IMG/VR virus record: IMGVR_UViG_3300045988_164075
Length of the DNA stretch: 64,000 nt
Source of the DNA: a virus
Direction: 5' to 3' (one strand)
The notes under the pieces are model-generated. The model saw only the letters and a program-made list of their open reading frames with translations. It made no database searches and was not told the DNA's origin. Position 1 is the stretch's first letter; each line of letters opens with the position of its first letter. The translations under genes and the position numbers were made by a program. Below are positions 8,541-64,000 of this stretch, piece after piece.

Positions 8541-11500
8541 TTAAATATTTGTTTTTATTTTATTGTTATATGGATTTGAGTCATATAGCTGCATTTGTTC
8601 AACTTGGATTTGTTTTTCCTTTGTATCAATTACTCTATCATTATAATCCTTATTATCTCGGATTTTTTGCTCTTCTAAAGAAATACGTTTACGCTCTAGA
8701 TCAAGTTTTTCTTTACTATTTTTATCAATCTGATTTAACAGTTTTTTGTTTTCTGAACTAAGTTGTTCTAGCTGTCTTTGATTTTCTTGAATTTGAGCTT
8801 CATATTGTTGTATACGTTGTTGTAATTGCATTAATTGATCGTTTTCAAGCTTTTTAGATTTCATTGAACGTGTTATATAACGTTCTAAGTCATTCATATT
8901 TTTAGCTTTGAAGATATTAACTACTAACTCAGAATCAGCCAATCCCGCTTTAATTAATTCAGGACTAACAGATTTTAAAGCCTCCATATCTCTATATGTT
9001 CGAGTACTATCTTCGATATGAATATCAAAATCAGTTATAGTATAGTGTTCAGGCAATGCAGTAAACAATTTAGCATATTTATCTCCTAAAATTATTGCAC
9101 CTTTTAATCCCTTTTTAAATACTATTTTAGCTAGATTTAACATATCATAGTTAACTTCTTTATACATTAAATCCATTGCATCAAAGTACTGTTTAGTTAA
9201 TAGAGTAGATTGTTTAATTCCAACTTGTACGTTTGAAACAGCGTCTCGTTGCTCTATTTGACCTAGTTTTTCTTGGAATACTCCTGTAATAGATGATGCT
9301 TGTTGTTCAACAGATTGAATTGCAAGTTGTATTGCTTGTATTGCTTGAACTTTCACTGTATCGTCAAATCCGTTAAAAATAGTATTTAACGATTGCCCTT
9401 CTTGAGAACTATCTAAAATAGCTACTCCATTCTTTTTTCAAGCTAATCACTTTTGAATTCTTTCAGGCATTTCAACTCCTAATGCTTCAGGAACGTTAGC
9501 TAAGTCTAACCATTCGCCAACAGTTCCACTAGAAGCAATTAAGTTGTCTCTATAGAACAATAGCATATCGTATTTCATTTGTGTTCACATAAGTTCGTTA
9601 CTCTTATGCCGTCTATTTAGACTGCTACATATTTCTATGTAGATCAGACTATATCATATATAAATTAATGTTTTGTAATATAATTGTTAATAAATCTTCT
9701 TGAAAACATTCAGTAGATGTTTTATTTGGCCAATTTTGAGGAACATACAAATTATTTTTAATAATCTTTTTTAATTCCGCTTCAAAATTTACACATGCTT
9801 CAAATTCATTAAATTCAATAATTTTAAGAACATCGATGTTATAATTTAACTTTTTGTAGTCATCAAATCTTCTTAAGTTTCCATCAGTTTTCTTATATGT
9901 GATTCCTAATTTATAAAATTTTTCTGTTGAATTTGATAATTTAATTAGATAAAACACATTACTTTTTGTTCAATTGGTATTACATTTTATACAACCACAG
10001 CCCGAAAATATATAATCATTATCTATTTTAACTTCTCCATGAATAGGACAAATTAATATACATTTTCCATTATGCCGATTTGTAGATTCAATTTTAAAAT
10101 CATAAACATTATTATACAAATAACGTAACTGTTTATAAAAATAATCTTTTCTATTAACCGCACTACGAATATTTGGAGTGTGACCAGCTAATAATGCATC
10201 AGGAGAAATAGAAACTATTCCATATCGTGTATCAAATAGCATTTTATCCTTCATTTTTGTATACTCAGATAAAGGATGAATTTGATTATATATCTTAGGT
10301 TCTTTGTCTTTTAACATATTCATAAAATACTCAGTTCTATTAACCGCTAGTAATATTCCTGGACGATTATTAAATAACTGTTTAGCCTGAGTTAATTTTA
10401 TAATACCGTATCTATCTTTAACAATAATTGGTTGTGATAAACCTTTAAAGTGCCCAATGACTTCAAGCTCCCCATTATATAGTTGCTTTACTTTTTGTTT
10501 ATAATTTTCTTCGTTATATTTCATAACTACTTATTAATTTATTAACAATTATCTTTAATTTATACTTCCGCGCTTCGGATCACTTGATCCTACATAATAG
10601 TCGTTGAACCTTCCATTTTTATATGGCTTGGCTGCTGATTGCCCTCGACTTTACGTTAGGGGTTTCCAGCAATTCACGGAATTTAGACAGGACTCATACT
10701 AATGTTAATCCTGTAGATCAGAAGTAGCTAAAATAAGAGAGAACGGTTGCCCGTTTTTATCTAAAAAGAATGTTCCGTTAACTGATAATGTACATTTACT
10801 TGGATAATCAGAAGAGCGCACTACATATTTAGATTCACCTCTAGTAATATAAATATCATTTCCAATTTTTACACCTTCGTGTCTAGTTAAATACCCTGTT
10901 TTTTTATTAACTTCAAGTCATTCAACTTCATAAACTGGAATTGTATTAAGCAATCTATGTCCATTTATTGTTTCATCAAATGGCAACATTGGAGTTACTT
11001 CTAATCCTCCTAATATACCTGTACTTGTTCCTTCTAAGATAGTTCCTGTATCAGTTCTAATTTCTGTATTAGCTGCTGGAACTCTTACAAATACACTATT
11101 AAAATATGCTTGATTCTTATGAAAATCATTATCTAAAGATTCTAGAGCTTCTGAAGTTAATTCATCGTGATACCGATTAATTATTTCCTCTTTAGTCATG
11201 TACTTACGAATAACTGCTCGATAAGAATCTTTTAAATAATAAGAATTAGTATTACGTTCAATAAAGGTATTTAGAGGATTTAATATTTCTAATGATACAT
11301 TTTCTCCATTTTCAGTTGGAATCACTCGATAATAACATGTTCCTGTAATCAAGAGATCTAAAAATAACTCTCGCATCTTATTTTTTAAATCTATGTTGCG
11401 AGATTGACGTAAATATATTAGTATATTTTGTGCTGCAATTTCATATTCAGAAGTGAAAGATTCTTCTGTATCTGCAATTAATTTATCTAATTCTGCCTGA

Positions 11501-11895
11501 ATAAATGGATCATTATTTGCAAGTTCTCTGTTATCTAATAGTATCGGAATAATAGAATTTTGTAAATATGATTTTAAATACTTATAGACAGTTTCGTTAA
11601 TTTTTAATTGCTTTTCTCGCATAATATTAGAAACAGTTTTAGAATCTTTACAAGATATTTTTAAATCAGGTTCTAATCCTAAATACTCTCCAATTAATAC
11701 ATCAATATGTTTTTTAATTAAAGGAGTAAAATTAATAGAGGTAGGAGTACCTATTCCAAAATTATCTTCTAAATGTCTAAACTGTTCTGCATCTCTAGTA
11801 CAATGATAATAGTTATATGCTTTTCTAAGCTTAACTTTATCGTAGACCAGTTCAGCAATTGTCTTTTTAATTTTTTCAATATCTGTATTATTCAT
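8541..11895 (-). CDS. Portal protein, split by a group I intron. Exon 1 is 11895..10708, exon 2 is 9575..8541, 741 codons in total.
   Basis: The N-terminus (..LRKAYNYYHCTRDAEQFRHLEDNFGIGTP..FTPLIKKHIDVLIGEY) is portal-like and lies directly downstream of terL. The join gives ..ATSDLQD|KYDMLLFYRDNLIASSG. Both exons are whole codons. Several in-frame TGA. Confidence 0.7.
9576..10707 (-). mobile_element. Group I intron (1132 nt) in the portal gene, carrying a homing-endonuclease ORF.
   Basis: A 7-bp P1 pairs exon ACAGGAT with intron GTCCTGT, with U.G at the splice site. The intron ends ...CACAAATG, so the last nucleotide is G. Removal restores the frame. Confidence 0.7.
9649..10524 (-). CDS. 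Intron-encoded GIY-YIG / T5orf172-like homing endonuclease, 291 aa, one in-frame TGA.
   Basis: ORFs 9970..10524 and 9649..9957 are in one frame, joined by TGA (..CIKCNTN W TKSNVFYLIKLSNSTEKFYKLGITYKK..). This gives a Y-x10-YxG pattern plus an N-terminal Cys-rich repeat. Confidence 0.6.
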
Positions 11896-12197
11896 TATAA
11901 TATATCGTTATTACAATAATCGTCTGTATCGATACATTGTGACTCATATCATTCGTGTTTAATTGCTCGGAAATGATGTGCTCGTTCTATTTGGCGTTTA
12001 CGTAAGTCCTTAGCAATAAACTTTAGAAATGATTCTTTATCTCCTTGATAATTAATAACCATAGGAGACATTTCTTGGTTTAGATATAAGTTTAATGTAA
12101 AATCATCTTCACTTTCGATTACTTTTAAGTGTCCAATATACTTACAACATGTAACTTTTTCAATAATATCTAAAACCTCTTTTTCTAATTGTGTCAT
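11895..12197 (-). CDS. Hypothetical protein between terL and portal.
   Basis: ORF 11949..12197 extends through TGA to TAA 11895-11897, which overlaps the portal ATG. Confidence 0.45.
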
Positions 12198-12259
12198 GTT
12201 GTTGGAATTATACCATATCGTTTATATCCTCTGTCGTCAATATATCATCCAATATCTTT

Positions 12260-14668
12260 TCAAGTTTTAGTAACTTCGTTTTTAACTTTAGGATTAATTC
12301 CAGTTAATTCTTCATCCGCCATTTCACACATCCCAAGAGCAGCTACAATATCAAATTTTCTTTTATTTTCGTATGAATAGTTTAGTAACTGTTCAAGCAT
12401 TTCATCAGAATCAATTCCATAACAGTAATCATTTACAAAGTTATTAATCAATTCTAATCCATGTTTAATAATAGTTTCTGTTGCAGGTACCCCTATCATG
12501 GCCGAATTTCCTTTTTTTATATCTCCTAAACTAGATTTTGGACGTCGCATAAATAGAGAATCTTTCTTTTTTTCTCTAAAGTAAGTTAATATACTGATTT
12601 TTGTATGTTCAAGTAACGCCTTACAATTGTACCATACTAAAATCTTCATTGCGTTTTCATAAGCTTCTCGTATGTCTCTTGGGCGATCTTTATAAATACA
12701 AACATATTTAGGTTCGTTTAAACCAAATACTCTTCTTTTTACAACAATACAAAAATCTGATACATCGTATTGTGTTGCAGAATCCCCAGTACCCTGATCG
12801 ATAGAGTCTATTCCTGCAACATATAAATTATTATATATATTACCTTCGCTATCTCGTTTTGGTTCTTCGTAAACTAATATTTTACTATTAGGACTAGATA
12901 CTGCTTTAACTTTATTTCGAGAATTATCGTTATCTTCTCTATCTCATAATAACGCTATATGTTGAGGAGAAGTTCCCATTTTATGTACTCGAATCTGAGT
13001 AATTCTATCTGCAATTAATACGGAATCAAATATATTTTCACCTTGTCGTAATAATGCTTCTTTAGGAGTAAAACAATATTCTGAACAATACTCTAATAAC
13101 CGTTCTCCTGATTTTAATTTGCGTTGTTCTTCATAAAAAGCTTTAGCTCGTTTAGTATCGGTTACTCCTCGATTATCAACATATCCAGGACGCATCATAA
13201 ATTCATATGCTGGAATAAAGAACCCAGTATACTGTGCAGTACCATCATCTGAATAGAAGTTTTTATATGGAAGTACTCCTGCGCTTAATGGATCTTCAAA
13301 CATTTTAGCTAAACCAGCTAGAGCAGGCCCCATATCACCTCCCGTCCCTCATGCGATCTTAATCCCGACTCTAGCTCCTCCTAGTTCAACTAGAGCAGTA
13401 CCTTGCGTTCACGATGTTGAAAGTATTGGATTAGATCCAGCCTCTTCAAATAAGAGTCTATCTACACGTTCACCTCTAATTTTTCTTGGGTGATCTGCTG
13501 TTATTCCTTCTATATCAGCCATTCGCCCAAATTCTATGCCTTCACTATCAACAAGAGATGCACGTTTGTGTTTTATATTATCAATTTTCTGACGAAGTCG
13601 TTTCATACCTCCGTCAGTATTTTGATTTAATCAGTTTAATTGTACTCAGCATTTACCTAATACAGTATCAACATAACTCTCAGTATATGCTGTATAAATA
13701 GTAGTAAAACCTTTAGTAGTAATAAAAGGACGAACACCTAAACAAGCTCCAATTTCTGAAAAACCTCAATTTTTGTTATCTCTAAGGCTTTTTATCCCTA
13801 GACTCTTATAATTTCTTATAAGTTCAGCATATATTTTCATCCTTAACTAAATATTAGGATGTTTCGCTCTCGTGGAAAGTTTATCTCTGTGATTCCTTTC
13901 TATGCGTTACGATGGTCAGTGATTAATTGACTTATCTCGCTGTTAACATAGTGATTTTAATCACCTTAGTCTTCTGCGATATAGCGAAATTTATTACTTT
14001 TATATTACTATAAAAGAGGGCAGGTATTAGTTTACCCCACGAGATTTTAATGCAACACAATCTTTATAAAGATATTCGCACATTTCTAGATAGTGAAAAT
14101 ATTCATATTGTTTTGCAAAAAAAGTTGGAAATGCTTCGGTACGTCCAGCACCAGCTTTTTTCTCTCCATCAACAGTTTTCATTCGATAGAAATTCAAAAA
14201 GAAATAATGATCTCCAGTTATCCTATATTTTCCAACAGTATAACCATCTACACAACGTTTATACTGTTCTGTTCAATAATCACGATAAGGTTTACTATTT
14301 TTAGGATATTCTGTATAATGTCCTCTTTCCATAAACAATCTACCTGCCTCAGTAAATGGAGTTGGATCAAAATCTAAACCTTGAGTTTCATTTATAGGTC
14401 TATAACCAGTTAATTCATAAGATAATTCTGGATCAAAATATAATATTTCTTCATCAAGAGGAACATCTCACGCACCATTGCGTTTTCTATGTCCTTCCTT
14501 AGGAAACTCATAATATGGACTTTCCTCTTCGTCTTCTGTTTTTGATACAGTTACATCTTGAAATAATTTCTTTTTTAATTCTTCTTCATACCTGTCTGCA
14601 AATGTGGGTAAAGTTGCAGGAGGATTTTTTCTTGGTCTACCTCGTTTTCGTTTTACTTCTTGTTCCAT
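12260..14668 (-). CDS. terL: Terminase large subunit, split by a group I intron. Exon 1 is 14668..14034, exon 2 is 13766..12260, 713 aa.
   Basis: Four ORF-track pieces (14468..14668, 13409..13606, 12944..13333, 12260..12649) are in one frame when TGA is read as Trp and 13767..14033 is removed. The join recreates the Walker A region ..LKSRGV|GFSEIGA.. The C-terminus (..DIVAALGMCEMADEEL) is typical of a terminase nuclease domain. Confidence 0.85.
13767..14033 (-). mobile_element. ORF-less group I intron (267 nt) in terL.
   Basis: The 5' splice site is GGGGT|AAACTA, with the exon pairing to intron GCCC(T). The 3' core GATGAAAATATATGCTGAACTTATAAGAAATTATAAGA...GATAACAAAAATTG| is shared with the plus-strand introns at 54.5, 59.8 and 60.5 kb. 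Confidence 0.75.
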
Positions 14669-14679
14669 TATTTATATTT

Positions 14680-37415: not shown

Positions 37416-37432
37416 CTAAAAATTTTAATATT

Positions 37433-37651: not shown

Positions 37652-37689
37652 AATATATCATAAAGTTACTAACAGCAAATTTAAAAATT

Positions 37690-37775: not shown

Positions 37776-37795
37776 ATAGTATAGTAACTTAAAAC

Positions 37796-38490: not shown

Positions 38491-38562
38491 GGCGGCTTCT
38501 TCTAATGGTTAGGAAAGAGAATTTTCAGTCCTAAAATAGCAGTTCGATTCTGCTAGTCGCTA
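38491..38562 (+). tRNA. tRNA-Glu(TTC)-like with a poorly paired anticodon stem (possible pseudo-tRNA).
   Basis: GGCGGCT/AGTCGCT, D-arm TTCT-AATGGTTA-GGAA, loop TTTTCAG, T-arm AGCAG-TTCGATT-CTGCT. Only 3 of 5 anticodon-stem pairs form. Confidence 0.45.
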
Positions 38563-46128: not shown

Positions 46129-46208
46129 CTTTTTGTAAATGTAATTAAATATTATAGATAAAGTCTAATAACATTTAATTATTAATATAATAAAATAAGT
46201 ATAAAAAC

Positions 46209-46475
46209 ATGACTCAACCTGAATATTCTACAATACTATGTTCTTGTAATTTTTCAGAACACTTATTAATTCTTCATTTTAATAAAGACGATAAAGAAAT
46301 ATATTTGGAATATCATTTATGTTCTCTTCCATTTTGGAAACGAGTAATAATAGGTATTAAATATATATTTGGCTATCGTAGTAAATACGGAGAATACGGA
46401 GAATTCATTATCTCAAAAGATAACTATAAACAATTTAAAGAAATTCTTACATTTTTTGAAGATGAAACTAAATAA
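46209..46475 (+). CDS. Hypothetical protein.
   Basis: 88-aa ORF. Confidence 0.4.
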   Translation: MTQPEYSTILCSCNFSEHLLILHFNKDDKEIYLEYHLCSLPFWKRVIIGIKYIFGYRSKYGEYGEFIISKDNYKQFKEILTFFEDETK

Positions 46476-46922: not shown

Positions 46923-47145
46923 TGCGTTAATGACTTCTTTATATAATGCTAGATGGAATGACATGTGTGAACCTAAAACATTGGATGATATATTTGAAGC
47001 AATTAGGAAAGCTGCAAATAAAGGAAAGTTTGGAATTATCTATTTTGGAGATTATCATAAACCTGAATTTGTACCTGAATTAACTCAGCTTGGATTTAGA
47101 ATTATATACAATGATATAAATGATATATATTATATATTATGGTAA
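46909..47145 (+). CDS. Hypothetical protein, paralogue of 47139..47378.
   Basis: ..AANKGKFGIIYFGDY..VPELTQLGFRIIY..YYILW versus ..ATKGKFGIFIKNSN..IPELEADSYLV..YIGIYW. Confidence 0.45.
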   Translation: MDSYNALMTSLYNARWNDMCEPKTLDDIFEAIRKAANKGKFGIIYFGDYHKPEFVPELTQLGFRIIYNDINDIYYILW

Positions 47146-47378
47146 ATGCAAATATTATGAGAAAAGTTGCTGCCGATAACTCATTAAATAATACTAAAAT
47201 AGTAGTTATTGATAGTATAGGTGAAATAGAAGATATTATTATCTCTGAAGCAACAAAAGGAAAGTTTGGAATTTTTATTAAAAATTCAAATTTAGATTTC
47301 CAACAAATAATCCCTGAATTAGAAGCTGACTCTTACTTAGTAGATAATTACGGAGATTATATAGGAATATATTGGTAA
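47139..47378 (+). CDS. Hypothetical protein (paralogue).
   Basis: 79-aa ORF. Confidence 0.45.
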   Translation: MVNANIMRKVAADNSLNNTKIVVIDSIGEIEDIIISEATKGKFGIFIKNSNLDFQQIIPELEADSYLVDNYGDYIGIYW

Positions 47379-47393
47379 TTGCAAGAATTAATA

Positions 47394-47682
47394 GCGCTGG
47401 TAGTTTACGTTGGCAGAACGCTGGTCTTTAAAATGGAGCTTTATAGTAGAAATACTATAAATGTACTTGATGATAACGTTGAATCCTTAACAGATAGTGC
47501 TGATGGTAACGACGTCGGAATAGAATAATTTCTAGCCGCGAGAGAGCAGATAATCAAGCATCTAAGTCAATTTTGATATGATGAAGACGTGCTCCAGACT
47601 ACAAACAAGATGTACTTTTTGGTAGTGAAAACTATAGTAGTAAGCAAAACCAGAAGAAGGGGATCGTCACCTCTACAGCGCG
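47394..47682 (+). tRNA. tRNA-Trp-like opal suppressor, tRNA(UCA), interrupted by a group I intron. Exons are 47394..47428 and 47645..47682.
   Basis: 5' half GCGCTGG-TA-GTTT-ACGTTGGCA-GAAC-G-CTGGT-CTT. 3' half CAAA-ACCAG-AAGA-AGGGG-ATCGTCA-CCTCT-ACAGCGC-G. The spliced loop is CT-TCA-AA. The anticodon arm and the G discriminator resemble E. coli tRNA-Trp (CCGGU-CUCCAAA-ACCGG, G73, recalled from memory). There is one G7-A66 mismatch. Confidence 0.65.
47429..47644 (+). mobile_element. Group I (IC3-like) intron in the anticodon loop between positions 34 and 35, 216 nt, no ORF.
   Basis: Starts after U and ends in G. GAAA-capped hairpin TATAGTA-GAAA-TACTATA (47442-47459). Long-range GGAGC (47435)/GCTCC (47591) pairing. 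GATGAAGACGTGCTCCAGACTA (47580-47601) resembles the J8/7-P7 region of tRNA group I introns and the GATGAAAA..GCTGAACTA cores of the other introns here. Confidence 0.55.
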
Positions 47683-47709
47683 CAAAATTTAATTAAACTT
47701 ATATATATT

Positions 47710-49088: not shown

Positions 49089-49107
49089 CAATTCTAATTA
49101 TTATTTT

Positions 49108-49299
49108 ATGGCAAAATATATTGTAACTTATTGTCCTGAGTGTCAACGTAATACTACTCATAAAATTTATGTAGAAGATGGGTATGGTGTTTCAGGAATA
49201 TCGAGAATATTTTCAAACTTAATTAGTTTAGGTTTATGTAATATTGGCAATATTACTTATTGTACATGCTTAAATTGTGGGAATACTAAAGAAATTTAA
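49108..49299 (+). CDS. Zn-ribbon protein.
   Basis: CPECQ...CLNCG. Confidence 0.45.
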   Translation: MAKYIVTYCPECQRNTTHKIYVEDGYGVSGISRIFSNLISLGLCNIGNITYCTCLNCGNTKEI

Positions 49300-49301
49300 T
49301 T

Positions 49302-50489
49302 ATGCGAAATAAAAATTATTGATTCTAATAGACATTGAGATAATTTAATTCAAAGAGAGTTATACGAAACAGCTGAAAAAGAAATTTTAGTTACTAGTTT
49401 AACCTCAGATACTCAATTAGGAAATAATATGCGACAAGTAGATGCTATTGTTACAATTGGGAACGAAAAGGGTTTTTATAAAAAATTATTATCGTTCGGA
49501 GAGAATATTCAGAAACGTTGAATACATTTTACAGAATGTCCTTCTAAGAAAACGATCCGAGAAAATATTATAAAAATTTTTAAAAATAATATTCTAAACT
49601 ATTCTTCGAACGAAATTTTTTCTATTATTACTCCAACTTATAATACAACTACAGAAGAAATCACTAGACTTTATCAATCATTAGTAAAACAAACTTATAC
49701 TGATTGAGATTGATGAGTTCTAGACGATCCTACTAATGATACGGTTATTAAAACATTAGAATCACTAAATGATTCTAGAATTTATATATTTAAAAATATT
49801 TCACATAAAGGAAATATTGGTTTTAATAAAGGGTATTAGGTTCTATGTGTTCTGGATCATATATAGTTGAAGTAGATCACGATGATGAATTAACTAGTGA
49901 TTGTTTACAAGTATTACATGATGCATTTAAAGCATATCCTGATGCTGGATTTGCTTATTCTCATACTTGTGAAATGAATCAAGACGGTCCTGCTGATTAT
50001 GGAGATGGATGAGGATTAATGCATGGTACAACAAGAATAGAGGTACTGGATGGCAAAAAAACTTTAATTGCAGTTACTCCTCATATTAATTGTGAAACAC
50101 TTCGTATGGGATGGACTTGTCCAAATCATGTTCGAGCTTGAAAAAGAGATACTTATAATAAATTGAGAGGACATAATCGAGATTTATCAATTGCTGATGA
50201 TTATGAACTAACAATTAGAACTTTTTTATCAACTCGTATGATAAGAATTGACAAAGCGTTATATATACAACATCATGAAACCATAACAGAATCCTATAGG
50301 AGAATTAAAGAAATAGCAAGAACTTTATCTTTAGCATTATCCACTTGAGATACTGCAATTCACAATCGTATCCCTGAAATTAATAACGCAACTGATTTGG
50401 TTTGAGACATTAAGAATAACTGTAGTTTACTAATGGATACTATTCGATACTCTGGCCTTAAACCTTTAAGTTATAATTATAAACCTTAA
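49302..50489 (+). pseudogene. GT2-family glycosyltransferase with TGA codons and two frame disruptions.
   Basis: ..FSIITPTYNTTTEEITRLYQSLVKQTYTD W D W W VLDDPTNDT..GNIGFNKG, then a -1 switch near 49838 into ..GSYIVEVDHDDEL... ATG 49302 is in a different frame from the N-terminal region, with the switch at the run AAATAAAAATT. Confidence 0.5.
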
Positions 50490-54116: not shown

Positions 54117-54904
54117 ATGAAAAGACGTATCTGTACTTTATCAGATAAAATGGTAGAACTACTAGTACGTCAATTACAACACGAATTGTATAATCATAAT
54201 CTTTATCGTACCTTTGCTAATTTTTATGGTACTCAAGGTCTAGCTGTACTTGAACAATATTATATAGACCGAGCAGAAGAAGAAAAACTTCATCACGATT
54301 GGATTTATGGTTATTTAAACGAAAATGATGCTATATTTATCTATCCTGAAATTCCAGGAATTGTAGAGAAATGGGATGATAACATTAAACCATTCGCTTT
54401 AACTGTAGATAAAGAAATTGAAACAACAGGTCTTATCTATGATATGGTAAATCAAGCAGTTTCAGATAATGATTGGGCGACTTTTAATTGGCTAAACGGA
54501 GATGATGAAAAAGTTGGACGTTTAGTTCAAGAACAGGTAAACTTCTTTTGCCTGGCTGCATAGTAATATGTAGTATAAAATAGATCAAAAACGGTGAAAG
54601 CTGAGATGCTAATACCGTGCTAAACGTATTAATAATATAATACGTCAGTGTAACGCGTAGGTTTTGAAACTTGAAAAAGAATAAAATAAACCCAAGAGTG
54701 ATCTACTCCTAATAAATTAGGATGAAAATGTACGCTGAACTATAAGGAATTCAACTTATAGAAGTTAAGATAAAAAGCTTAACGATAACAAATTGAGAAG
54801 AAGAGTCTATTAGTAGAACTGCGCTTGATATTGCTGAAGAGGAAGGGTCTTGGTTGCGTAAAGAAAAATCTATTATGAATGCTTACAAAGGAGACACAGA
54901 TTAA
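54117..54904 (+). CDS. Ferritin-like protein split by a group I intron. Exon 1 is 54117..54538, exon 2 is 54796..54904.
   Basis: ..LLVRQLQHELYNHNLYRTFANFY..DRAEEEKLHHDWIYGYL..DWATFNWL.. The join gives ..RLVQEQV|EEESISRTALDIAEEE.., matching the ferritin ..EQhEEE.. helix. Start taken at ATG 54117. Confidence 0.7.
54539..54795 (+). mobile_element. ORF-less group I intron (257 nt) in the ferritin-like gene.
   Basis: P1 pairs exon CAGGT with intron GCCTG (U.G at the splice site). The intron starts AAACTT and ends ..GATGAAAATGTACGCTGAACTATAAGG..GATAACAAATTG|. Confidence 0.75.
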
Positions 54905-55640
54905 AGTACCAGATGATATTGATAATCTTTATTTTTGCGGTGATATTCACGCAAATCTAGATTATATTAAATACTTTATAAAAACAGGAGTTGGATTTAA
55001 AAATAAAATATCTAACTCCTGTATTATTTTATGTGGAGATGTAGGATTAGGATTTGCTCCAAAGTTAGAAGAACAGAAGTTAAGCGAGCTTAAAAAGATT
55101 TGCGAGAAGCAAAACTGTATAATAATGTGCTGTAGAGGCAACCACGACTCGTTTTTAGCTTTTCAGAACTCTAAATATAAATCAGGAAGAGTAATTACTC
55201 TATCTGATTATGATATTATAGAATTTAAAAATAAAAGAATTCTAACTATTGGTGGTGGAACCTCAATAGATCGACTTTATCGGAAACAAAATGGCTGGGG
55301 TTATTGGGAAGATGAAAAAATTGCCTATTTAGATGATTTTTCACAATTCCAAAATATACAAATAATTTGTAGTCATTGTGCTCCTACTTGTGCTTATCCT
55401 TATGGATTCGATAATCCTATAGTTAAGCAATTTTGTAAAGATGATCTAACTCTAATGGATGAATTGATCTATGAAAGAGATTATTTACAACGTCTTTATA
55501 ACAAACTTTCTAAAACAAATACCATAGAAGATTGGTATTATGGTCACTATCATCAAAACATGTTCCAAACTATTAATAATACAAGATTTCATTTGTTAGG
55601 AATAAACAATATAGTTCAATATGTTAACTCTGAAATGTAA
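54879..55640 (+). CDS. Metallophosphoesterase.
   Basis: ..LYFCGDIHAN..CGDVGLG..RGNHD..SHCAP..GHYH. Confidence 0.6.
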   Translation: MLTKETQIKVPDDIDNLYFCGDIHANLDYIKYFIKTGVGFKNKISNSCIILCGDVGLGFAPKLEEQKLSELKKICEKQNCIIMCCRGNHDSFLAFQNSKYKSGRVITLSDYDIIEFKNKRILTIGGGTSIDRLYRKQNGWGYWEDEKIAYLDDFSQFQNIQIICSHCAPTCAYPYGFDNPIVKQFCKDDLTLMDELIYERDYLQRLYNKLSKTNTIEDWYYGHYHQNMFQTINNTRFHLLGINNIVQYVNSEM

Positions 55641-55935
55641 ATTAGTTGCTGTACAAGATGGGACATATACTAATTATGTATTTGAAGATGTTGATAAAGA
55701 ACTAAACAGCGAATTAAAGTATATTGCTTGTACTAAACCACCTAATTGAAACTATTCTACTGAACTTAAAATAGGAGATGTTGGATATTTAACATGTAAG
55801 TTTGTAGAGGCTGGAGTAACACAATGGTATAATCCAGAACAAAAAGATTTTTGTGTCTATAATTATACTAATTGTTACTTTATAAACTTTATTAAAGTAC
55901 AAGAAAATATAAGTAATAAAGAATTTAATTTTTAA
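55621..55935 (+). CDS. Hypothetical protein, one in-frame TGA.
   Basis: MLTLKCKLVAVQDGTYTNYVFEDV...KPPN W NYSTELK.. Confidence 0.45.
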
Positions 55936-55939
55936 ATAT

Positions 55940-56779
55940 ATGAGTACAGAATTTGGAAGTATATTGCAGCGAGCAATTGAAAATAAAAGTAACGATATTA
56001 ATTCGTTTACGTGGTGTTTTCAAAATGGAAAAAATGTTAAATTAATGGATTGTACAAGAGAAGAACTAAAAAAGTTCTGAAAGCATAGTAATGAAATGCT
56101 ATATAATACTAATCGGTATAATCCAGGGAAAATAACAATTAGAGAAAATATCAATCGAATTTATAATGATTGTAATGCAGAATTATTTGTACGTTATTTG
56201 CTAACTGAATGTGAGGTTGATGCACTTAAAACTCGCAAAGATATTCTTGATTATATAAATCAACGTAAATCAGCAGATAATCTGTCTTTATCTGATTCAA
56301 TTGCAACAATATTTACAGGACTTCCAGCAATTTATGAAAAGATTACACTTGCAAAGTTAATGGATGCTTGTTTTGATAAATTAGAAATTATTAATAAAAA
56401 GATGATTTCTGATAAGTTTATTTTAGCACAAGGTATCTGATTGACTGATGCAGAAAAGGAAGAATTAACTGAGTATGATAGTAATGGTAAAATGCGTAAT
56501 CGTATGGATGTAATTAAGGAACGTTTAATTATTAATCCTGAAATTAAATTAAGAATATGTCCTACTGGACTTTCTTATTCAGAATTTCGAGCATTGCGTC
56601 AAATGCCGAATTTACCTAAAATTGTTGATCTTCCTTCTGTTACATTGAAGACACTGCGAGATAAAATATTACTATTGTTAAATAACGATCTCGATTATCA
56701 TATACATAAGTGGGAGACTATTAAAAACAATATTCAACGTGTAGCAGAATATAAAAATTGGAGTTTAGATATTAACTAA
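55940..56779 (+). CDS. Hypothetical protein, 279 aa, two in-frame TGA.
   Basis: ATG 55940, ORF 56096..56440 and ORF 56441..56779 are all in one frame, joined by TGA. Confidence 0.5.
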
Positions 56780-56853
56780 TTTAATTTTATAAATTCCAAA
56801 TCAATTTTAATTTTTTCTAATTTATTAGGTTTAATTATAAATAATTACTAATT

Positions 56854-57783
56854 TTGTTAAAATTAAATTTACCGCTACTAGAGGAGTTATGTTTAATTAA
56901 TAGTCCATCTGGTCTTGAATTCTCAATGACAACATATATTATAAACTATTGTTATCAAATTAAAGGAATTCAATATAAAATAGATAAAGTAGGAAATCTG
57001 TTTATTACAAAAAATACAACTTCTCCTAAAACGTATCCTTGTTTAATAGCACATATGGATGAAATACATAATCTTAATATACCTAGAAAAATTATGCTTA
57101 AAAATAATTTAATCTGAGCTGTTACAGAGGATACTAAACAACCTTGCGGATTAGGAGCAGACGATAAGTTTGGTATTTGTATTATTTTACAATTATTAAA
57201 AATATTACCTGACATCAAAGTGTGTTTTACTGTACAAGAAGAATCCTATGGTATAGGTGCTATAGAAGCACAATTAAATTCAGAATTTTTTAGCAATATT
57301 AGATTTATGATTGAGCCTGATAGACGAGGAAATTCTGATATAATTGTAGAAACAAATTGCTTAAAAATAGCCTCTGATGAGTTTCTTGAAGATATTTCAG
57401 ATTTACTACAAAAATATAAATATAAGCCTGCAATTGGAACATTTACAGATATTGGCGTATTAAAAGAAACAGTTAATGTTTCTGCTATTAATTTATCTTG
57501 TGGATATTATAAAGAACATACTTCAAGAGAATATGGACGCTTAAATGAACTAGAAAAATGTTTAAATCTTATTTATGATATTATAAATAAAGCTATAAAA
57601 GTATATGTTCATGATTCTCCTGATAAAGCGTATTGTTCATGGTATTATGATACCTATGGAGATGATGGCATTAGTAATTTAGATAATTATTCAACTATTT
57701 CATACGCAGAAGCATCTTATATTTGTCATAACTGTAAAGAGCACGATTGTAGTAAATGTAAAATTTGGGAAATTGCTCGATAG
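56854..57783 (+). CDS. M42/M20-like peptidase.
   Basis: ORFs 56854..57117 and 57220..57783 are in frame through one TGA. Contains ..INSPSGLE..IAHMDE..GLGADDKFG..FTVQEESYGIGA.. The start codon is uncertain (TTG). Confidence 0.5.
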
Positions 57784-58993
57784 AACAACTCGACAAAAAG
57801 AAAGCATTAAACGATGATTAGATAATAATGGTAAAGGGATATTAGAATGCACTACAGGCTATGGTAAGACATTTTTATCTATAATGTTAATTCAGTCAAT
57901 GTTAAAATCTAATCCTGATACTCAGGTTCTTATAAGTGTTCCTACAGAAATACTAAAAGAACAATGAGATAGACAGCTTATTAAATATCATTTATTTAAT
58001 AGTTGTAAGGTTGAAATTATTAATACAATTATTAAAAAAAGATATTTTGTAGATTTACTAATTATTGACGAAATCCATACTGCCTGTAGTCCAACTTTTA
58101 TTCAGATATTTAGCGCTGTAAAATATAAATATATATTAGGACTAACAGGAACTCTTGAACGATTAGACGGTAGACATAAACTATTAGAAAAATATTGTCC
58201 TGTTGTTGATAGAGTCACTGTAGAAGAAGCTATTGAAAATAATTGATTATCTGATTATCGAGAGTATAAAATATTACTCAAAGTTGATTTAAGTGAGTAT
58301 TGAGAGTTAAATAAAAAGTTTAACTCGTATTTTTCTTTTTTTAACTATGAGTTTGATACCGCAATGGGATGTGTAACAAATATTATTAAACGCCGTGCAT
58401 ATGCTAAACATATGGGAGTTTCATACGATCAAATAACAGCAATAGCTATGGATTGGTTGAGGTGTTTAAAGAAACGGAAAGACTTTGTGATGAAACATCC
58501 AAAAAAATTAGAAATAGCACATAAAATATTAGAGCATAGACAGGATTGTAAATGTATTACTTTTTCTGCAACTATTGCTGAAGCTGAGAAAATAAAATAT
58601 GGGTATACATTACATAGCGGTAAAACAAAGAAGAAAAATAGATTAACTTTAGAAGAGTTTTCAAGTTTACCAGTTGGTGTATTAAATACTAATAAAGCAG
58701 CAGATTTAGGACTAGATGTTCCAAACTTAAGTGTAGCAATTATACTTAGTGGAACTAGCGCATCTATCCAAAAAAATCAACGTTTAGGCAGAATACTAAG
58801 AAAAGAAGGCGATAAAGTTTCAGAAGTATTTAGTCTAATTATAGCTGGAACAATGGAAGAAAATTGGTATTCAAACTCTTCAACTCATTCTTATATAACT
58901 ATTACTGAAGATCAACTAGATGCAGTTTTAAATAGACAGCAAATTGAAACTAGACAAAGAGATACAATTAAAAGTATTGAATATAGATTTTAA
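57773..58993 (+). CDS. SF2 (DEAD/DEAH-like) helicase, five in-frame TGA in the N-terminal half.
   Basis: ..TRQKESIKR W LDNNGKGILECTTGYGKTF..LLIIDEIH..LGLTGTLER.. continues into ORF 58364..58993 (..ITFSATI..VLNTNKAADLGLDVP..QRLGRILR). The start is assumed at TTG 57773. Confidence 0.65.
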
Positions 58994-59070
58994 CAATTCC
59001 ACAAACTAAACATCTAATAAACTAGAGCTAAAAGTTTGAAGTTAATTTTTGATTAACAAAATTAATTTTA

Positions 59071-59667
59071 GTGGAATTAAATACAATCATAAATATTCTA
59101 ATTGAATATAATATTACTGCTGATGAGTTACTATTAATTTATTTAACTTTCTTAGCTCAAGATGAAGAAGGCCATCCAGAATATCTTTCTAAATGATTAA
59201 ATAACGGAGGACAAAAATATCTGAAACCTTTATTTAATTCTTTAAAAGAAAAAGGAATTATAAAGAAAAACTATAATCCTGATAAATATATTCCTAATGA
59301 TATAGAATTTAATCAGAATTTTATTAAAAGCTATATTAAACGTTCTGGAGAATTAGGTAAAGAATTGTTTGATAACTACGAACCTTTTTGTACTGTAAAT
59401 GGAAAAGTATATAGTTTAAGAAACATTTCTAAAAAGTTTTACTCTTTAGATGAATTTTATTTTTATTATTCTAAAACAATTGGACATTCAAAAGAAAAAC
59501 ATAAAGAAATTATGGATTTATTAGAATGAGCAAAATCTAATAAACTTATTAAAAGTGGAATATTAGAATTTGTTGCAAGTTGTAAATGGAATGATTTAAA
59601 ATTAATGAAAGAAAAGGGAATTACTCCTGAAACAGTTTCTTCATTTGATGTATATGAAAGTATGTAA
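59071..59667 (+). CDS. Hypothetical protein upstream of the DnaB-like helicase (loader-like by position only).
   Basis: An open frame with two TGA runs from GTG 59071 to TAA 59665-59667. There is no ATG upstream in frame. Confidence 0.35.
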
Positions 59668-59670
59668 TTC

Positions 59671-62284
59671 ATGAGCGATATTGGAATTCTTTGAAAACTA
59701 ATTGAGGACGGACGTAAGGGAAAAAATATTGGCACATCAACTGGTCTTTCAAAATTAGATAAACTAATAGGAGGAATTCAAGATAGTCGCTATTATTTAA
59801 TATCTTCTCAAAGTAGTGGAGGTAAAAAGATTAATTTCATTTTGCCGTCTATAAAAGTGATTTTATAGATAATGATCGGGCAATATCGGCGAAGGCTAAA
59901 CAGTTTATTAAAGATGCCTATAATATTGATCTTGATAAAATGCACGCTAACGCCGAGATAACTAAAGAAATTAAAGAGTCTTTAGTATTGTAACGCATAG
60001 AAGGTGAATCTACTTAGAATATAATCCTTCCACGAGTGTCCGACATCTAAATATAAATCTAAATTTAGATGAAAACATATGCTGACCTTATAGGAAACTA
60101 TAAGAAGTAAAGGATAAAAAGCCTTTACGATAACAATGTGAAAACTTCACTCGTATTGTTTTTTATGTATCAAATGCTACGTAATAGTACAGATCCAGTA
60201 TATTTTATTTATTATAGTCTTGAATTAGGTAGTGAAATTCTATTAGCTAAATTAATGGCTTTGTATTGTGCGGAAGAATTTGGTATCTATTTAACAACCA
60301 ATAACGTTCTTTCGTTTGATTCGATATTAACTGATGAAAATTATGAATATTTACGAAAGGCAAAAGAGTGAATACAGAGTATTGAAGATAGATTAATTAT
60401 ATTTGATTCTGGTTTATCTGCAAGAATTCTGTATAAAACTACTATTCCTATACTTCAAAAGCTTGGAAAGATCGAGGAAATAGATGGAAGAGAAATCTAT
60501 ATTCCTAATAATCCCAATCAGAAAGTTATTGGAGTTATAGATCATGCTTTGCTAGAAATGGCACTTTAATTAGAAATAATTATTGAAAAATCAAACAATA
60601 TCGGTAAAAGCTAAAATAAAAATTAAATAGTAATATTTGTATTTCTTATTTAATTAATGTAACTTTGATCAATAAAAATAGTTACAATAAAAAATTAAAA
60701 TATGGGAAAACAAATTACTACTGAATTTTTGAACAAATTAATCCAAATGTATGAGAGTGGAATGTCAATTAGTGCAATTAATTCCACTTTTCATACAGAT
60801 GCTTATTATCATTTTAAAAAACATGGAATTAAAATTCGATCTAGTGGTGAACAAAGACGGATAAGCAGAAAAAATTGTATTACAATTAATTGAGATTGTA
60901 AGAATGTTAATAATGGCATAGAAGCATATATTATTGGGTTATTAATGGCGGATGGGTCGTCTAGTGGTAAACAAATTGTTCTTTGTCTTAAAGATTCCGA
61001 TTCTTATTTAGTAGAAAAAATAAAAAATTATTTTTCTCCTGAAATAACACTTCAAAAAAGAAGAAATAACGTCGGATTTGCTATTTCCTCTCAAATTATT
61101 TGTGAAAATTTATCTCAATATGGAATTAAAGTAGGAAAAACTTACTCTGAATTATCGATTCCTTCTAATCTTTCTATTGATTTAATTCCACATTTTATTA
61201 GAGGATACTTTGACGGAGACGGTTCGATTTTTGTATGTAAAGTTAAAGGAGTCCCAAAATATTTAAAAGGAAATATTTGTTCTCCAACTAGAAATATTTT
61301 AGAAGAAATACAAGAAAAATTAAAAATATTTGGGATTGATTCTACAATAAATCTAGAAAAAAGATCAGGAAAAACAATATGAATACCGTCTGGAACAAAC
61401 GAAACTGTTGCATCTTGTGATATGTATCGGCTTTTTATACGCAAAAAAGAAAGTTTAAAAAAATTTTATAAGCTGATATATACAAATGCAGACTTTTTTC
61501 TTTTACGTAAGAAGAAAGTATTTGATGATTTTTATCATGCTAATACCGAGATAAGCTTAGAAACTAAAGAGTCTAAGCTATCGTAGAGCATAGAAACTGA
61601 ACCTAAGAAATTAGAATAAAATGTTTCCAAGAGTGTTTGACATCTTACTTAAATGAAGATGAAAATGTATGCCGAACTTATAGGAAACTATAAGAACTGG
61701 AAGATAAAAAACTTCTAGGATAACAAAATTGATTAAAATTAGAAGAAGGTAGGAAAATAAAGGAAGAAATTGATTTAACATCTTCTTATATGGTAACGCT
61801 TAAGCGTAAATATCGAATATCTTGATTTATGATTATGCAGCAAAATAGAGAATCTTCTTCTATGGATAGAAGAAAAGCTGATTTATCTGAACCAGGTTTA
61901 AATGATATTATGGCTTCAAGTGCTCCTGTAAATGATAGCGATGTAACCTTACAAATATTTTATCCTGCTAGAGAAAAACTTTCTACTTGTAGAGGATATA
62001 AAATATTAAGTGAAAATGGAGGAGGATTAAGAGATACATATAGAGGGTTGATTATAAGTAAAAATCGATATGGAATTGCTAATCAAGTCTTGAATTGTGG
62101 ATTTTATGGCTCCGTAGGTTGGTGAACGGAATTACCTTCGCCCGAACAAATTACTGATATAAAATTAATTAGAGAACCTTCTCTAAATATTCCGTGTAAA
62201 ACAAAACGTATTATACAACAAGATTTATCAGAAAATGATATAGATAAAGAGATAATAAGAACTAATATTGAATATACGTTTTAA
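59671..62284 (+). CDS. DnaB/gp4-like replicative helicase split by two group I introns. Exons are 59671..59823, 60141..60553 and 61732..62284, 372 aa.
   Basis: Exon 1 ends ..YYLISSQSSGG and exon 2 starts KTSLVLFF.., so Walker A GGKT is restored. Exon 2 ends ..VIGVIDHALL and exon 3 continues LKLEEGRKIKEEID..LKRKY..MQQNRESSS... The total length is divisible by 3. Several in-frame TGA. Confidence 0.65.
59824..60140 (+). mobile_element. ORF-less group I intron (317 nt) with a homing-endonuclease relic.
   Basis: Splice sites GGAGGT|AAAAAG and ..GATAACAATGTG|AAAACT. Positions 59839-59899 are identical to 63940-64000, the 3' end of the LAGLIDADG ORF in the next intron. The relic frame reads ..FAVYKSDFIDNDRAISAKAKQFIKDAYN..*. 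Confidence 0.7.
60554..61731 (+). mobile_element. Group I intron (1178 nt) with a LAGLIDADG ORF.
   Basis: P1 pairs exon TGCT (60550-60553) with intron GGCA (60560-60563). The 3' end is ..GATGAAAATGTATGCCGAACTTATAGGAAACTATAAGA..GGATAACAAAATTG|. The ORF sits between TATCGGT..AAAGCTAAA and GCTAATACCGAGATA. Confidence 0.65.
60702..61586 (+). CDS. LAGLIDADG homing endonuclease, 294 aa, two in-frame TGA.
   Basis: ORFs 60702..60893 and 60945..61382 and the tail to TAG 61584-61586 are in one frame. Motifs ..YIIGLLMADGSS.. and ..FIRGYFDGDGSIF.., plus an N-terminal HTH-like domain. Confidence 0.8.
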
Positions 62285-62286
62285 TT

Positions 62287-62793
62287 ATGGAATTGCCAAA
62301 ATCTAAACTACCTGCAGAAACACAAGATCCGAGAAATTTAATTATATTCTCAAAAGTTAAACAAGGAAAAAGTTCAGCTCTTGCAGAACTTCCTAATAAC
62401 TTGATGCTTGATACTGAAGGTGGATTAGCATATATTGAAGCACTTAAAGTTAGAGTAACGTCTGTAAAAGATATTAAAGAAGTTTGTCAAGAAGTAATTA
62501 AAGCTGGAAAACCTTACGATTTTATTACAATTGATACAGTTACAGCGTTAGAAGATATAGTTAAACCTTTAGCATTACACCTGTATAAACAAACTCCTGC
62601 TGGAGAGAAGTTTACTGGCACTGATGTCATTGACGCGGCAATGGGAGCTGGGTATAAATTTATGAGAGATGCTTTAGAGCAAGTTATTAATATGGTTGCT
62701 AAGTGTACTCGAAATGTAATACTTGTCTGTCATGCTAAAGATGCAGCTATTGCAAATAGTGATTTAACAGCGAAGCAAATTGACTTGTTAGGT
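62287..62793 (+). CDS. Sak4-like / AAA_24 RecA-fold ATPase, exon 1 only. The second exon lies beyond the window.
   Basis: ..NLIIFSKVKQGKSSALAELP..YDFITIDTVTALED..NVILVCHAKD..QIDLLG| is followed by the same GGT|AAA intron start as the other introns. Confidence 0.55.
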
Positions 62794-64000
62794 AAATTTT
62801 TTGTTTATTAAATAAATATGTTTTATATTTGTAAGAAATAAATAGATATATCTAATTAACATTTTTTACAAATATGATAGAAAAATTACATAAAGATGGA
62901 TTTAATTCTCAACAAATAGCAAATGAGCTAGGGTTAGAAAAGAAATATGTTGATTTATATTTAATTGAATATTTATATAAAACTAAACCAAACTCTAAAC
63001 GAAAAGATATAAATTTAATTAAGTCAGTAATTAACGATAGACATTGCGGAATAACTCTTAGTGATAGTTGTAAAAAGTATGGTTTAAATAATACTTCAAT
63101 TAGTCGTTTATTTAAAGATGCAGGCATCTATTTTCCAAATCCGAAATATTTTGATACATCTCAGATAAATACGAACTTTATTAACAACTTAATTAGAGAT
63201 TTTAATAATGGAACTCCTGTTTATAAATTAGTTGAGACATACGGCTATAATAAAAGTGTATTAGCGAAACTAATTAATGAAAATGGAGGAAATACAACCG
63301 CTCCCTCATTTAATATTCATATTTTTGATAATATTGATACTGAAGAAAAAGCATATTGATTAGGATTTCTAATGGCGGATGGAAATGTATCTCAAAAAGG
63401 CCACATAATAAGTTTAGAATTAAAAATAATTGATGCTGAACACTTATTTAAATTTAAAACGTTTCTAAATAGTACTAATAATATAAAGCTTGATTTTGGA
63501 AAATTAAAAAGATGTAGGTTTAATTTTGCTAATAAATATACGTTTGAGGCTTTATCTAAATGAGGCTGTGTTCCAAATAAATCATTAATATTACAATTTC
63601 CATATTTAATTCCTAAAACTTTATATATTCCGTTTATTCGGGGATATTTTGATGGAGATGGGAGTTTAACATATTCTTATACAAATAAAGGAAAAACAAA
63701 AATTACAGTTAGTACTAATTTTATTGGAACTAAATCTTTCTTGCAAAGTTTACAAGATATTTTATTAGAATATAATATAAAGTTTAATGAATGACATAAT
63801 AAACATCATAACGAAGTTATTATGAACATAGATAACAATAAATCAAATAGTGTGAAATTATTAAATTTATTATATTCTAATGCTACTATTTATCTTGAAC
63901 GTAAATATCAACGTTATTTATTTTTTAAACAAGATTCAAATTTTGCCGTCTATAAAAGTGATTTTATAGATAATGATCGGGCAATATCGGCGAAGGCTAA
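62794..64000 (+). mobile_element. Group I intron (partial, runs off the window end) with a LAGLIDADG ORF near its 5' end.
   Basis: The 5' junction is TTAGGT|AAATTT. The ORF 3' end is identical to the relic in the DnaB intron 1 region that precedes its TATCGGCG..GGCTAAA stem. Confidence 0.55.
62874..64000 (+). CDS. LAGLIDADG homing endonuclease (C-terminus beyond the window), three in-frame TGA.
   Basis: ORFs 62874..63359 and 63372..63563 and the downstream stretch are in one frame. Motifs ..AY W LGFLMADGNVS.. and ..FIRGYFDGDGSLTY.., plus N-terminal HTH-like repeats. Confidence 0.75.

Follow-up and report, generated by a model that had tools for sequence, protein, structure and literature searches.

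In the analyzed stretch of the viral record IMGVR_UViG_3300045988_164075 from IMG/VR (64,000 nucleotides (nt), hereafter the window), seven insertions interrupt five protein-coding genes and one transfer RNA (tRNA) gene. The protein-coding genes are those of the portal protein, the terminase (terL), a ferritin-like protein, a DnaB-like helicase, which carries two insertions, and a Sak4-like (AAA_24) protein. The tRNA is an opal suppressor with the anticodon UCA. Self-splicing introns of group I are by far the most probable identity of all seven insertions; they fall into three families, designated here as A, B, and C, in a TGA-recoded crAss-like phage. Their boundaries, the restored reading frames, the intron-less alleles, the covarying structure, and the endonuclease genes are direct observations.

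The 64-kb window is AT-rich, with a G+C content of about 28%. The genes are on the minus strand until about 18 kb and on the plus strand thereafter, and a tRNA array spans 33-52 kb with 19 tRNAs, 18 recognized by ARAGORN and one by Rfam alone. When single stop-codon reassignments were tested, long open reading frames (ORFs) appeared only with TGA as a sense codon, and recognizable genes were restored by this reassignment alone, not by that of TAG or TAA. Reading TAG as sense added nearly no long ORFs, and the apparent gain with TAA consisted of TAA-rich frames in AT-rich DNA, several of them overlapping tRNA genes. The region 18000-54000 shows few long ORFs under any single reassignment and contains the tRNA array and many short ORFs. 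The TGA codons in terL and the portal gene align with Trp, Tyr, or Phe of a standard-code relative, MT835470, and TGA outnumbers TGG 10:1 in terL. MT835470 has zero tRNAs and zero family A introns, and is usable as a comparison for terL and the portal gene alone.

In a tblastn search of GenBank with the spliced terL protein, most matches were crAss-like phages (Crassvirales) with 27-31% identity, and the two closest relatives were unannotated gut contigs with 51% and 43% identity. No near-identical genome was found among GenBank phages, while several IMG/VR contigs are strains 97-99% identical over the aligning stretches. The tRNA array, the TGA recoding, and the intron load fit the published description of the Zeta group (PMC7886860, PMC12386605); the terL placement is by tblastn. 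The source is probably an uncultured TGA-recoded crAss-like gut phage. The second-closest terL relative, MT835539.1 (L002), contains in-frame stops other than TGA, one of which is aligned to Gln, and appears to have recoded TAG to Gln. Three codes thus appear in one terL lineage: TGA to Trp in the window, the standard code in MT835470, and TAG to Gln in MT835539.1.

Boundaries, reading frames, and strain alleles

The host genes and the insertions, called introns below, are as follows. A vertical bar marks a junction, and P1 is the helix between the end of the upstream exon and the internal guide sequence.

8541-11895, minus strand: portal gene; exon 1 11895-10708, exon 2 9575-8541; 740 amino acids (aa), 3 TGA codons
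9576-10707, minus strand: portal intron, 1132 nt, family C, which we take to be td/Twort-like group IA2; endonuclease ORF in the P8 loop; junctions GGAT|TAAC...AAATG|AAAT; P1 ACAGGAU/GUCCUGU, with U.G at the splice site
9649-10524, minus strand: portal-intron endonuclease ORF, 291 aa, 1 TGA codon; PHROG 681 "endonuclease", E=3e-17
12185-14668, minus strand: terL gene; exon 1 14668-14034, exon 2 13766-12185; 738 aa, 10 TGA codons
13767-14033, minus strand: terL intron, 267 nt, no ORF; internal guide 14018-14022; P3 13984-13989/13862-13867; P7 13901-13906/13825-13831; junctions GGGT|AAAC...AATTG|AGGT; P1 GGGU|A/UGCCC
47394-47683, plus strand: split tRNA(UCA); exon 1 47394-47428, exon 2 47645-47683; junction U34|C35 in the anticodon
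47429-47644, plus strand: tRNA intron, 216 nt, family B; internal guide GAG within 47435-47439; P3 47466-47471/47553-47558; P7 47544-47548/47590-47594; P8 47559-47583; P9 47598-47626; junctions TCTT|TAAA...GTAAG|CAAA; P1 CUU/GAG
54117-54904, plus strand: ferritin-like gene (Pfam PF00210); exons 54117-54538 and 54796-54904; 176 aa
54539-54795, plus strand: ferritin-like intron, 257 nt, no ORF; P3 54581-54586/54700-54705; junctions AGGT|AAAC...AATTG|AGAA; P1 CAGGU|AAA/UUUGCCUG
59671-62284, plus strand: DnaB-like helicase gene; exons 59671-59823, 60141-60553, and 61732-62284; 372 aa
59824-60140, plus strand: first DnaB intron (dnaB1), 317 nt, no ORF, within the Walker A codons SSGG|KTS; junctions AGGT|AAAA...ATGTG|AAAA; P1 GGU|AAAA/UUUUGCC
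60554-61731, plus strand: second DnaB intron (dnaB2), 1178 nt; LAGLIDADG ORF 60702-61586 in the P5 extension, running into the core; junctions TGCT|AGAA...AATTG|ATTA; P1 UGCU/GGCA
62794-64000, plus strand: Sak4-like intron (sak4), cut off by the window end; LAGLIDADG ORF from 62874 in the P1 loop, core from 63940; 5' junction AGGT|AAAT, 3' end beyond the window; P1 GGU|AAA/UUUGCC

An earlier reading made from the sequence alone had placed seven group I introns in the window, and every position holds. The base preceding the 5' junction is T in all seven insertions and the last intron base is G in the six complete ones, as that reading had claimed, and its four proposed P1 helices (ACAGGAT/GTCCTGT, CAGGT/GCCTG, GGGT/GCCC, and TGCT/GGCA) are all present in the sequence. 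Its statement that removal restores the frame in the five complete protein-gene introns was borne out: with the insertions removed and TGA read as Trp, the portal, terL, ferritin-like, and DnaB-like genes become continuous ORFs of the lengths listed. Pfam matches cross the junctions in the portal protein (P22_portal) and at both junctions of the DnaB-like protein (DnaB_C).

Comparison of the spliced proteins with uninterrupted homologues showed them to be collinear, and no homologue showed the removed segments to encode protein. The alignments are gapless at the junctions for terL, portal, DnaB, and ferritin. The terL junction ALKSRGV|GFSEIGA corresponds to ALKARGVGFSEIAA of MT835470, and the portal junction DLQD|KYDMLLFYRDN to HLQDKYDLITFFRDN of the same contig. 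The DnaB-like protein was aligned with MT836666, in which NSGAGKTS corresponds to SSGG|KTS. The ferritin-like protein had no match among GenBank phages, and PDB ferritins were used as the comparison; the Archaeoglobus fulgidus ferritin 1s3q has the identical EQVEEE at EQV|EEE. Insertion at catalytic-motif codons, which had also been proposed, holds for the Walker A motif of DnaB and the EQVEEE of ferritin. The P-loop-like KSRGV|GFS of terL, comparable to the KSARVGYS motif of lambda gpA, is a plausible case only.

The strongest support for the boundaries comes from the strains. With flanks that share 98-99% identity with the window, some strain contigs precisely lack the insertions of portal, dnaB1, dnaB2, or sak4; the intron-less sequence or protein is that predicted for the ligated exons. 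Synonymous recoding is seen around the insertion sites among strains. The portal intron is absent in two contigs (L050 and L098), where GAC TTG CAA GAC replaces GAT CTA CAG GAT of the window, both encoding DLQD. The guide GUCCUGU is complementary to the portal exon bases of the intron-bearing allele alone; the intron-less alleles end in C and therefore form no such P1 helix. The dnaB1 intron is absent in four strains (L154, L157, L159, and L160), and the alleles of L154 and L159 read GGAGGT|AAAACTTCAC, as predicted. The dnaB2 intron is absent in five strains (L154, L155, L156, L157, and L160), and the L154 and L155 alleles encode the same HALLLKLEE, with synonymous codons on either side.

At the Sak4 site, the sequence beyond the window end was found through a protein-guided search of viral contigs; a 34-nt pattern from the window end had no exact match in them. 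Three states coexist at this site. Three contigs have no intron and read TTAGGT|AAAACAGGACG; others have an ORF-less intron of 299-307 nt ending ...AACAATGTG|AAAACAGG; and the window has the intron with a LAGLIDADG gene. A single species with intron-less, ORF-less-intron, and endonuclease-intron states at single sites represents a snapshot of the homing cycle, taken in a lineage of gut phages that is abundant.

If the insertions were protein-coding, they would be inteins or lineage-specific translated insertions. Inteins occur in this phage group (PMC7886860), an insertion in terL of contig L098 reads as one, and the 267 nt of the window terL insertion are a multiple of three. However, read-through meets immediate stops, such as GTA AAC TAA in terL, and neither 257 nor 317 nt is divisible by three. 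No long ORF is present in the ORF-less copies, and what is conserved in them is base pairing, through compensatory changes, rather than codons. Within the insertions, the endonuclease ORFs stand free and are out of frame with the host genes. A protein-coding origin is considered extremely improbable.

Non-splicing mobile elements, whether similar to miniature inverted-repeat transposable elements or insertion sequences or composed of endonuclease cassettes, would instead inactivate the genes or split them into functional fragments. T-even phages, for instance, have genes that are split by free-standing endonucleases, and the presence/absence polymorphism among strains would be equally expected of a transposable element. 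Yet the insertions would then break five genes that are essential or conserved, along with the single suppressor tRNA detected, and they are still kept in several independent contigs with intact flanking frames. The downstream exons begin mid-codon, with neither a start codon nor a ribosome-binding context. Neither target-site duplications nor terminal inverted repeats are present, the exons of the intron-less alleles are joined exactly, and the conserved fold has the group I topology. Such elements are a very unlikely explanation, and self-splicing introns remain the preferred one.

Further insertions were seen at or near these genes in related contigs. In MT835539, a related intron interrupts the terL codon that is split in the window. 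The L098 terL insertion (L098:612-1703), 1.09 kb long and in frame (...IAWG|CVCAG......IITHN|TGGDMGP), corresponds to window positions ~13333-13347 in exon 2, about 430 nt downstream of the terL intron. Close to that codon (residue 298/299), MT835539 has the end of a family A intron, at L002:6044. In L144, a 1.3-kb insertion (L144:7652-8948; window 55118-55161) interrupts the gene following the ferritin-like gene, and its 3' end is td-like (...GATATAGTCCG...GTAACGA...TTGAACAGTAAAG|). The window allele is without it, and this is thus another polymorphic intron site. Just past window position 64000, a second, td-like Sak4 intron lies 49 nt downstream of the first site (L154:4541-6000). It starts GGGT|TAACTTAAAAATGCCCC and has ...CAACGACTAC...GATATAGTCTAATC; an ORF of about 1 kb comes after the 3' strand of P7. 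This intron is present in every strain contig read past the site, and Sak4 carries up to two introns.

No copies besides the known ones appeared when the window was searched by nhmmer with family A, with the tRNA intron, with each half of the portal intron, and with the second intron of Sak4. Three segments that are window-specific relative to near-identical strains (45779-46328, 47036-47250, and 49090-50488) were considered as extra introns and rejected. Short direct repeats flank the first (CCATTTTG) and the second (AAAGGAAAGTTTGGAAT), which suggests repeat-mediated deletion in the other strain. The third, intergenic and 1.4 kb long, follows tRNA-Arg and resembles none of the three intron families.

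Fold and distribution of families A and C

Family A has five members in the window, those of terL, the ferritin-like gene, the DnaB-like gene (two), and the Sak4-like gene. The sequence-only reading had recognized a single family of four; the common 3' core it described is present in terL, ferritin, dnaB1, and dnaB2, while the membership rises to five and the families to three in all. The core consists of GATGAAAA..TAYGCYGAMCT, a hairpin, a GATAAAAAGC hairpin, and GATAACA..TG. With a profile built from the three ORF-less copies, nhmmer also detects a partial copy at 63940-64000, where the sak4 core lies, and no further copy in the window; the Sak4 insertion is therefore the fifth member. The 3' core of dnaB2 was located by nhmmer at 61533-61732.

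Four of the seven introns lack an ORF. In the other three, the endonuclease ORFs are in peripheral loops: the P5 extension (dnaB2), the P1 loop (sak4), and the P8 loop (portal). The two family A copies with an ORF hold LAGLIDADG homing-endonuclease genes, in loops L5 and L1. Both match LAGLIDADG_3 in Pfam (E=1e-15 for dnaB2), and their frames include two TGA codons in dnaB2 and three in sak4. The portal-intron endonuclease ORF has no Pfam match.

A degenerate 21-nt core motif matched at least 120 viral contigs. The downstream GATAACA tail is present in 118 of the 124 motif matches listed, and most of the remaining ones run off the stored DNA; in the listed sequences, two covarying hairpins precede the tail. 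The resemblance is far beyond chance, and viral contigs carry family A very widely. Cultured phages have its core between the fragments of split tape-measure genes, with an HNH gene as the neighbour in one case and an annotated Intron_gpI in another.

From viral contigs among the matches listed, 64 distinct full-length ORF-less members (252-341 nt) were aligned. A structure with the group I topology was drawn by hand, with P2, P3, P4, P5, P6, P7, P7.1, P8, P9, and another 3' hairpin. In this alignment 93.5% of the cells are paired, against 34-42% when the partners are slid by 1-3 columns, although the structures were drawn on the window sequences and then tested on relatives, so that the drawn register is somewhat favoured, a point to be set against the group I assignment. 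Changes on both sides are seen in 47 of 56 pairs, and double-change cells number 927 versus 273 in shuffles. The covariation of the group I core, which had been suggested as a check, is thus found in family A.

The long-range helix P3 covaries in all six pairs; it is UUUCGC/GCGAAA, UCGGGC/GUCCGA, UAGAUC/GAUCUA, and UCAAAC/GUUUGA in the window copies. One P7 pair is AU in 46 members and GC in 16, and is never unpaired. The P7 of the ferritin intron (CGCGUA/UACGCUG) is a compensatory variant of the family A consensus. The pair G228-C345 is invariant in 64/64 and adjoins the bulged U346, an arrangement that fits the predicted guanosine-binding site. P7.1 (columns 233-237 with 282-286), which follows the 5' strand of P7 and precedes the 3' strand of P3, is 100% paired with both-side changes in 5/5 pairs. 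Introns of subgroup IA typically have a hairpin at this place. P3 and P7 cross each other, and with the P4-P6 stack, P8, and a 3' tail that ends in G they form the group I architecture. On the drawn model, family A is a compact ribozyme of about 250-320 nt, predicted to be of IA type with the extra P7.1 hairpin.

Family C is represented by the portal intron. Its last 80 nt have blastn matches in 564 phage records, 203 of which are named Escherichia and 105 Staphylococcus; these are presumably td/Twort-type introns. The core read by eye comprises P3 UUCCGUG/CGCGGAA, P7 CGACUA/UAGUC(U)G, and the P8 hairpin holding the ORF. An extra pairing between P7 and the 3' strand of P3 was also read by eye (CAACGACUAU...GGAUCAAGUGAUCC).

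Family A might instead be a class of structured RNA or ribozyme that is separate from group I and occupies similar positions. The Rfam group I model RF00028 misses all family A sequences tried, the window copies and seven relatives, and no member was linked in this analysis to an experimentally spliced intron. Against this, the covarying helices follow group I in their order and nesting, with the P3/P7 pseudoknot among them, and a hairpin placed between P7 and P3', as here, is typical of IA. The tail of J8/7, P7', and P9 parallels that of the portal intron, and hundreds of phage records match the portal 3' domain. The 5' exon U opposite a guide G, the terminal G, and the LAGLIDADG genes in the loops are further points against a separate class, which is regarded as highly improbable; family A is treated here as group I.

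The split suppressor tRNA(UCA)

The unspliced tRNA locus gave nothing in ARAGORN. When 47429-47644 was removed in silico, ARAGORN recognized a 74-nt cloverleaf with the anticodon tca and the loop CU[U|CA]AA. The spliced cloverleaf is standard, with one acceptor-stem mismatch. The position of the tRNA intron had been given correctly by the sequence-only reading, and its host is now refined to the opal-suppressor tRNA(UCA). There is no other UCA tRNA among the 19 tRNAs of the window array.

The intron is identical in four strain contigs, and the exons and the intron are conserved while the flanks differ by 2-3%. In the cultured crAss-like Kolpuevirus 'frurule', a homologue lies in the gene of a helicase and adjoins one for a GIY-YIG endonuclease. 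P7 shows compensatory changes between the two, GAGCA/UGCUC in the window versus GACUA/UAGUC in Kolpuevirus. Two scans of viral contigs revealed 99 loci with the family B J8/7-P7 motif; contigs carrying family B loci are L125, L143, and L161-L233. In-silico splicing at U34|N35 turned 45 of the 99 loci into tRNAs: 39 Leu(UAA), four Sup(UCA), all from strains of this phage, one Thr(UGU) (L199), and an uncertain UUA (L200), possibly ochre-reading. The family B introns of tRNA-Leu had no blastn match among GenBank phage records. In the 14 ORF-less members aligned, 91% of cells are paired versus 30-45% in the controls, and both-side changes are seen in 27 of 42 pairs. The window tRNA intron retains every core pairing of the family.

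The split tRNA(UCA) could be a dead gene, with TGA read by another suppressor encoded outside the window or by the host. The 64 kb visible belong to a larger genome, and an intact tRNA with a CUUCAAA anticodon loop is present in some related viral contigs (L162 and L201). On the other side, the halves form a standard cloverleaf with a single acceptor mismatch after the exact removal of 216 nt, exons and intron are conserved in the four strain contigs in spite of the 2-3% divergence of the flanks, the core pairings are intact, and the array of 19 contains no other UCA tRNA. A dead gene is therefore rather unlikely.

It is possible, as a tentative proposal, that a ribozyme step is required before TGA can be read as tryptophan, with tRNA(UCA) maturing only after group I self-removal, and that the same is the case in other recoded phages lacking a findable suppressor. 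If so, translation of the terminase with its 10 TGA codons, the portal protein, the helicase, and the intron endonucleases would all be downstream of self-splicing. Expression of terL, the portal gene, and the TGA-containing intron endonucleases would have a dual dependence on splicing, of the mRNA and of the suppressor tRNA. This would explain why standard tRNA finders miss the suppressor, and might provide a timing or quality gate on the alternative-code switch. The presence of family B in tRNA-Leu(UAA) genes at 39 of the 99 viral loci would overturn the textbook view that phage introns reside only in protein-coding genes. Searches of the open-access literature turned up no phage suppressor tRNA with an intron, and a split suppressor tRNA has apparently not been described before.

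Other RNA features were recognized in the tRNA arrays. Within the arrays of contigs with an intron-bearing tRNA-Leu, a drum RNA (L217:2850-2956; RF02958, 75.8 bits) and a cow-rumen-4 RNA (L222:1886-1948; RF02948, 63.8 bits) were found. In the window, the tRNA at 37346-37416 has a 6-nt anticodon loop (ARAGORN 'tt', Lys-like; Rfam 45 bits) and could be a decayed tRNA-Lys or an unusual decoder. The tRNA at 38491-38562 was recognized by Rfam (44 bits) and not by ARAGORN; its acceptor, D, and T arms are good, while the anticodon stem has 3/5 pairs and the loop is UUUUCAG. A sub-threshold match to YrlA (Y RNA-like; RF02553, 33.8 bits, E=0.0016) is at 37684-37794, directly upstream of tRNA-Asn.

The group I assignment and known systems

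Several observations, besides the favoured register in the family A alignment, weigh against the group I assignment. RF00028 detected zero of the seven introns in the whole window, at the gathering threshold and at E<=10, and had no match at E<=10 in the sub-regions 54400-60250, 9500-14100, and 47380-47700 (0.3-6 kb) or in seven family A relatives; the absence of a model match is an outcome that the sequence-only reading had named as refuting it. The P1 of the tRNA intron, CUU/GAG, is very short. The terL, ferritin, and tRNA introns are present in every strain seen, leaving no intron-less allele for their boundaries. A 6-residue gap just after the second DnaB junction separates the protein from its distant MT836666 homologue; the intron-less allele resolves this gap. 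Catalysis and splicing themselves are deduced from comparison of DNA sequences.

Three homologues of the tRNA intron, all from tRNA-Leu genes, were scanned with RF00028; L217 exceeds the cut-off of 50 bits with 62.8 bits, and L180 and L222 reach 49.9 bits each. Because families A and B covary, the tRNA-intron homologues are matched, and the portal 3' domain recurs in the 564 phage records, the silence of RF00028 is attributed to the sensitivity of the model. The same matches place the window tRNA intron in a recognized group I lineage, though the window copy scores below the filters.

On this assignment, each ribozyme would fold after transcription, and the last exon bases would pair with the internal guide to form P1, with U.G at the point of cleavage. 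Bound in P7, an exogenous guanosine would attack the 5' splice site, and the freed exon would then attack after the terminal G, ligating the exons. The outcome would be the terminase, portal, helicase, ferritin-like, and Sak4-like mRNAs and the mature suppressor tRNA, and virion assembly would depend on splicing. The endonucleases would carry the introns into intron-less alleles at co-infection, and a spread of this kind is expected to produce the presence/absence polymorphism among strains.

With the td/Twort IA2 introns, which are those of T4 td and of orf142 in Staphylococcus phage Twort, the portal intron presumably shares the 3' domain GAUAUAGUCUG...GUAACGA...UGAACA.AAUG, the U.G of P1, P7, and the endonuclease ORF in a peripheral loop. 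Family A presumably resembles them in overall architecture, including the P7-to-P3' hairpin, but differs in its own conserved GAUGAAAA-UAUGCUGAAC, GAUAAAAAGC loop, and GAUAACA tail, in the single P7.1 hairpin with the conserved UGAA...AUAUAAU loop, and in being invisible to RF00028. The hosts differ as well: portal, terL, ferritin-like, DnaB-like, and Sak4-like genes here, and nucleotide-metabolism genes in the td/Twort comparison. A model able to recover this very common phage intron could be built from the covarying alignment of 64 members.

Zeta and Delta crAss-like phages were reported to have an unprecedented intron density, with up to 14 introns per genome, in addition to inteins (Yutin et al. 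2021, PMC7886860). The phage analyzed here shares with them the crAss-like terL lineage, the TGA recoding, the large tRNA array, and LAGLIDADG introns in core genes. Because intron-rich crAss-like phages were reported in 2021, the intron load is a new instance of a known phenomenon. That survey located introns through endonuclease domains (PMC7886860), a method that would miss the four of the seven introns here that have no ORF. Because of four such introns, also invisible to RF00028, annotation pipelines call broken terminase, helicase, and ferritin-like genes and miss the suppressor tRNA.

Jug (jumbo gut) phages contain many short (~206 nt) ORF-less group I introns in terL and other essential genes (PMC12363816, PMC12880540), and splicing of 37 of 76 introns was confirmed there by metatranscriptome reads (PMC12363816). 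They belong to a different lineage with a different genome size, and the density is higher here, seven per 64 kb versus ~18.5 per 360-400 kb. The consulted parts of the Jug-phage work report no tRNA-hosted introns. According to a 2014 review, every phage intron known at the time was in a gene coding for protein, even though phages have many tRNA genes (PMC3984707). Recoded crAss-like genomes without a detectable suppressor tRNA have been noted (PMC7886860, PMC12386605), and split tRNA genes are not considered as the cause in PMC7886860.

The intron-split tRNA(UCA) is a concrete candidate explanation for such undetected suppressors, and would link stop-codon recoding with intron load. Position 34|35 of the anticodon loop is the classic position of the group I intron of tRNA-Leu(UAA). 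Bacterial tRNA group I introns, such as those in the cyanobacterial and plastid tRNA-Leu(UAA) and the Azoarcus tRNA-Ile, are likewise inserted in the anticodon loop, the former at this very position. The tRNA intron described here differs from them in its host, a phage opal-suppressor tRNA(UCA) presumably needed for the phage's own TGA-containing genes.

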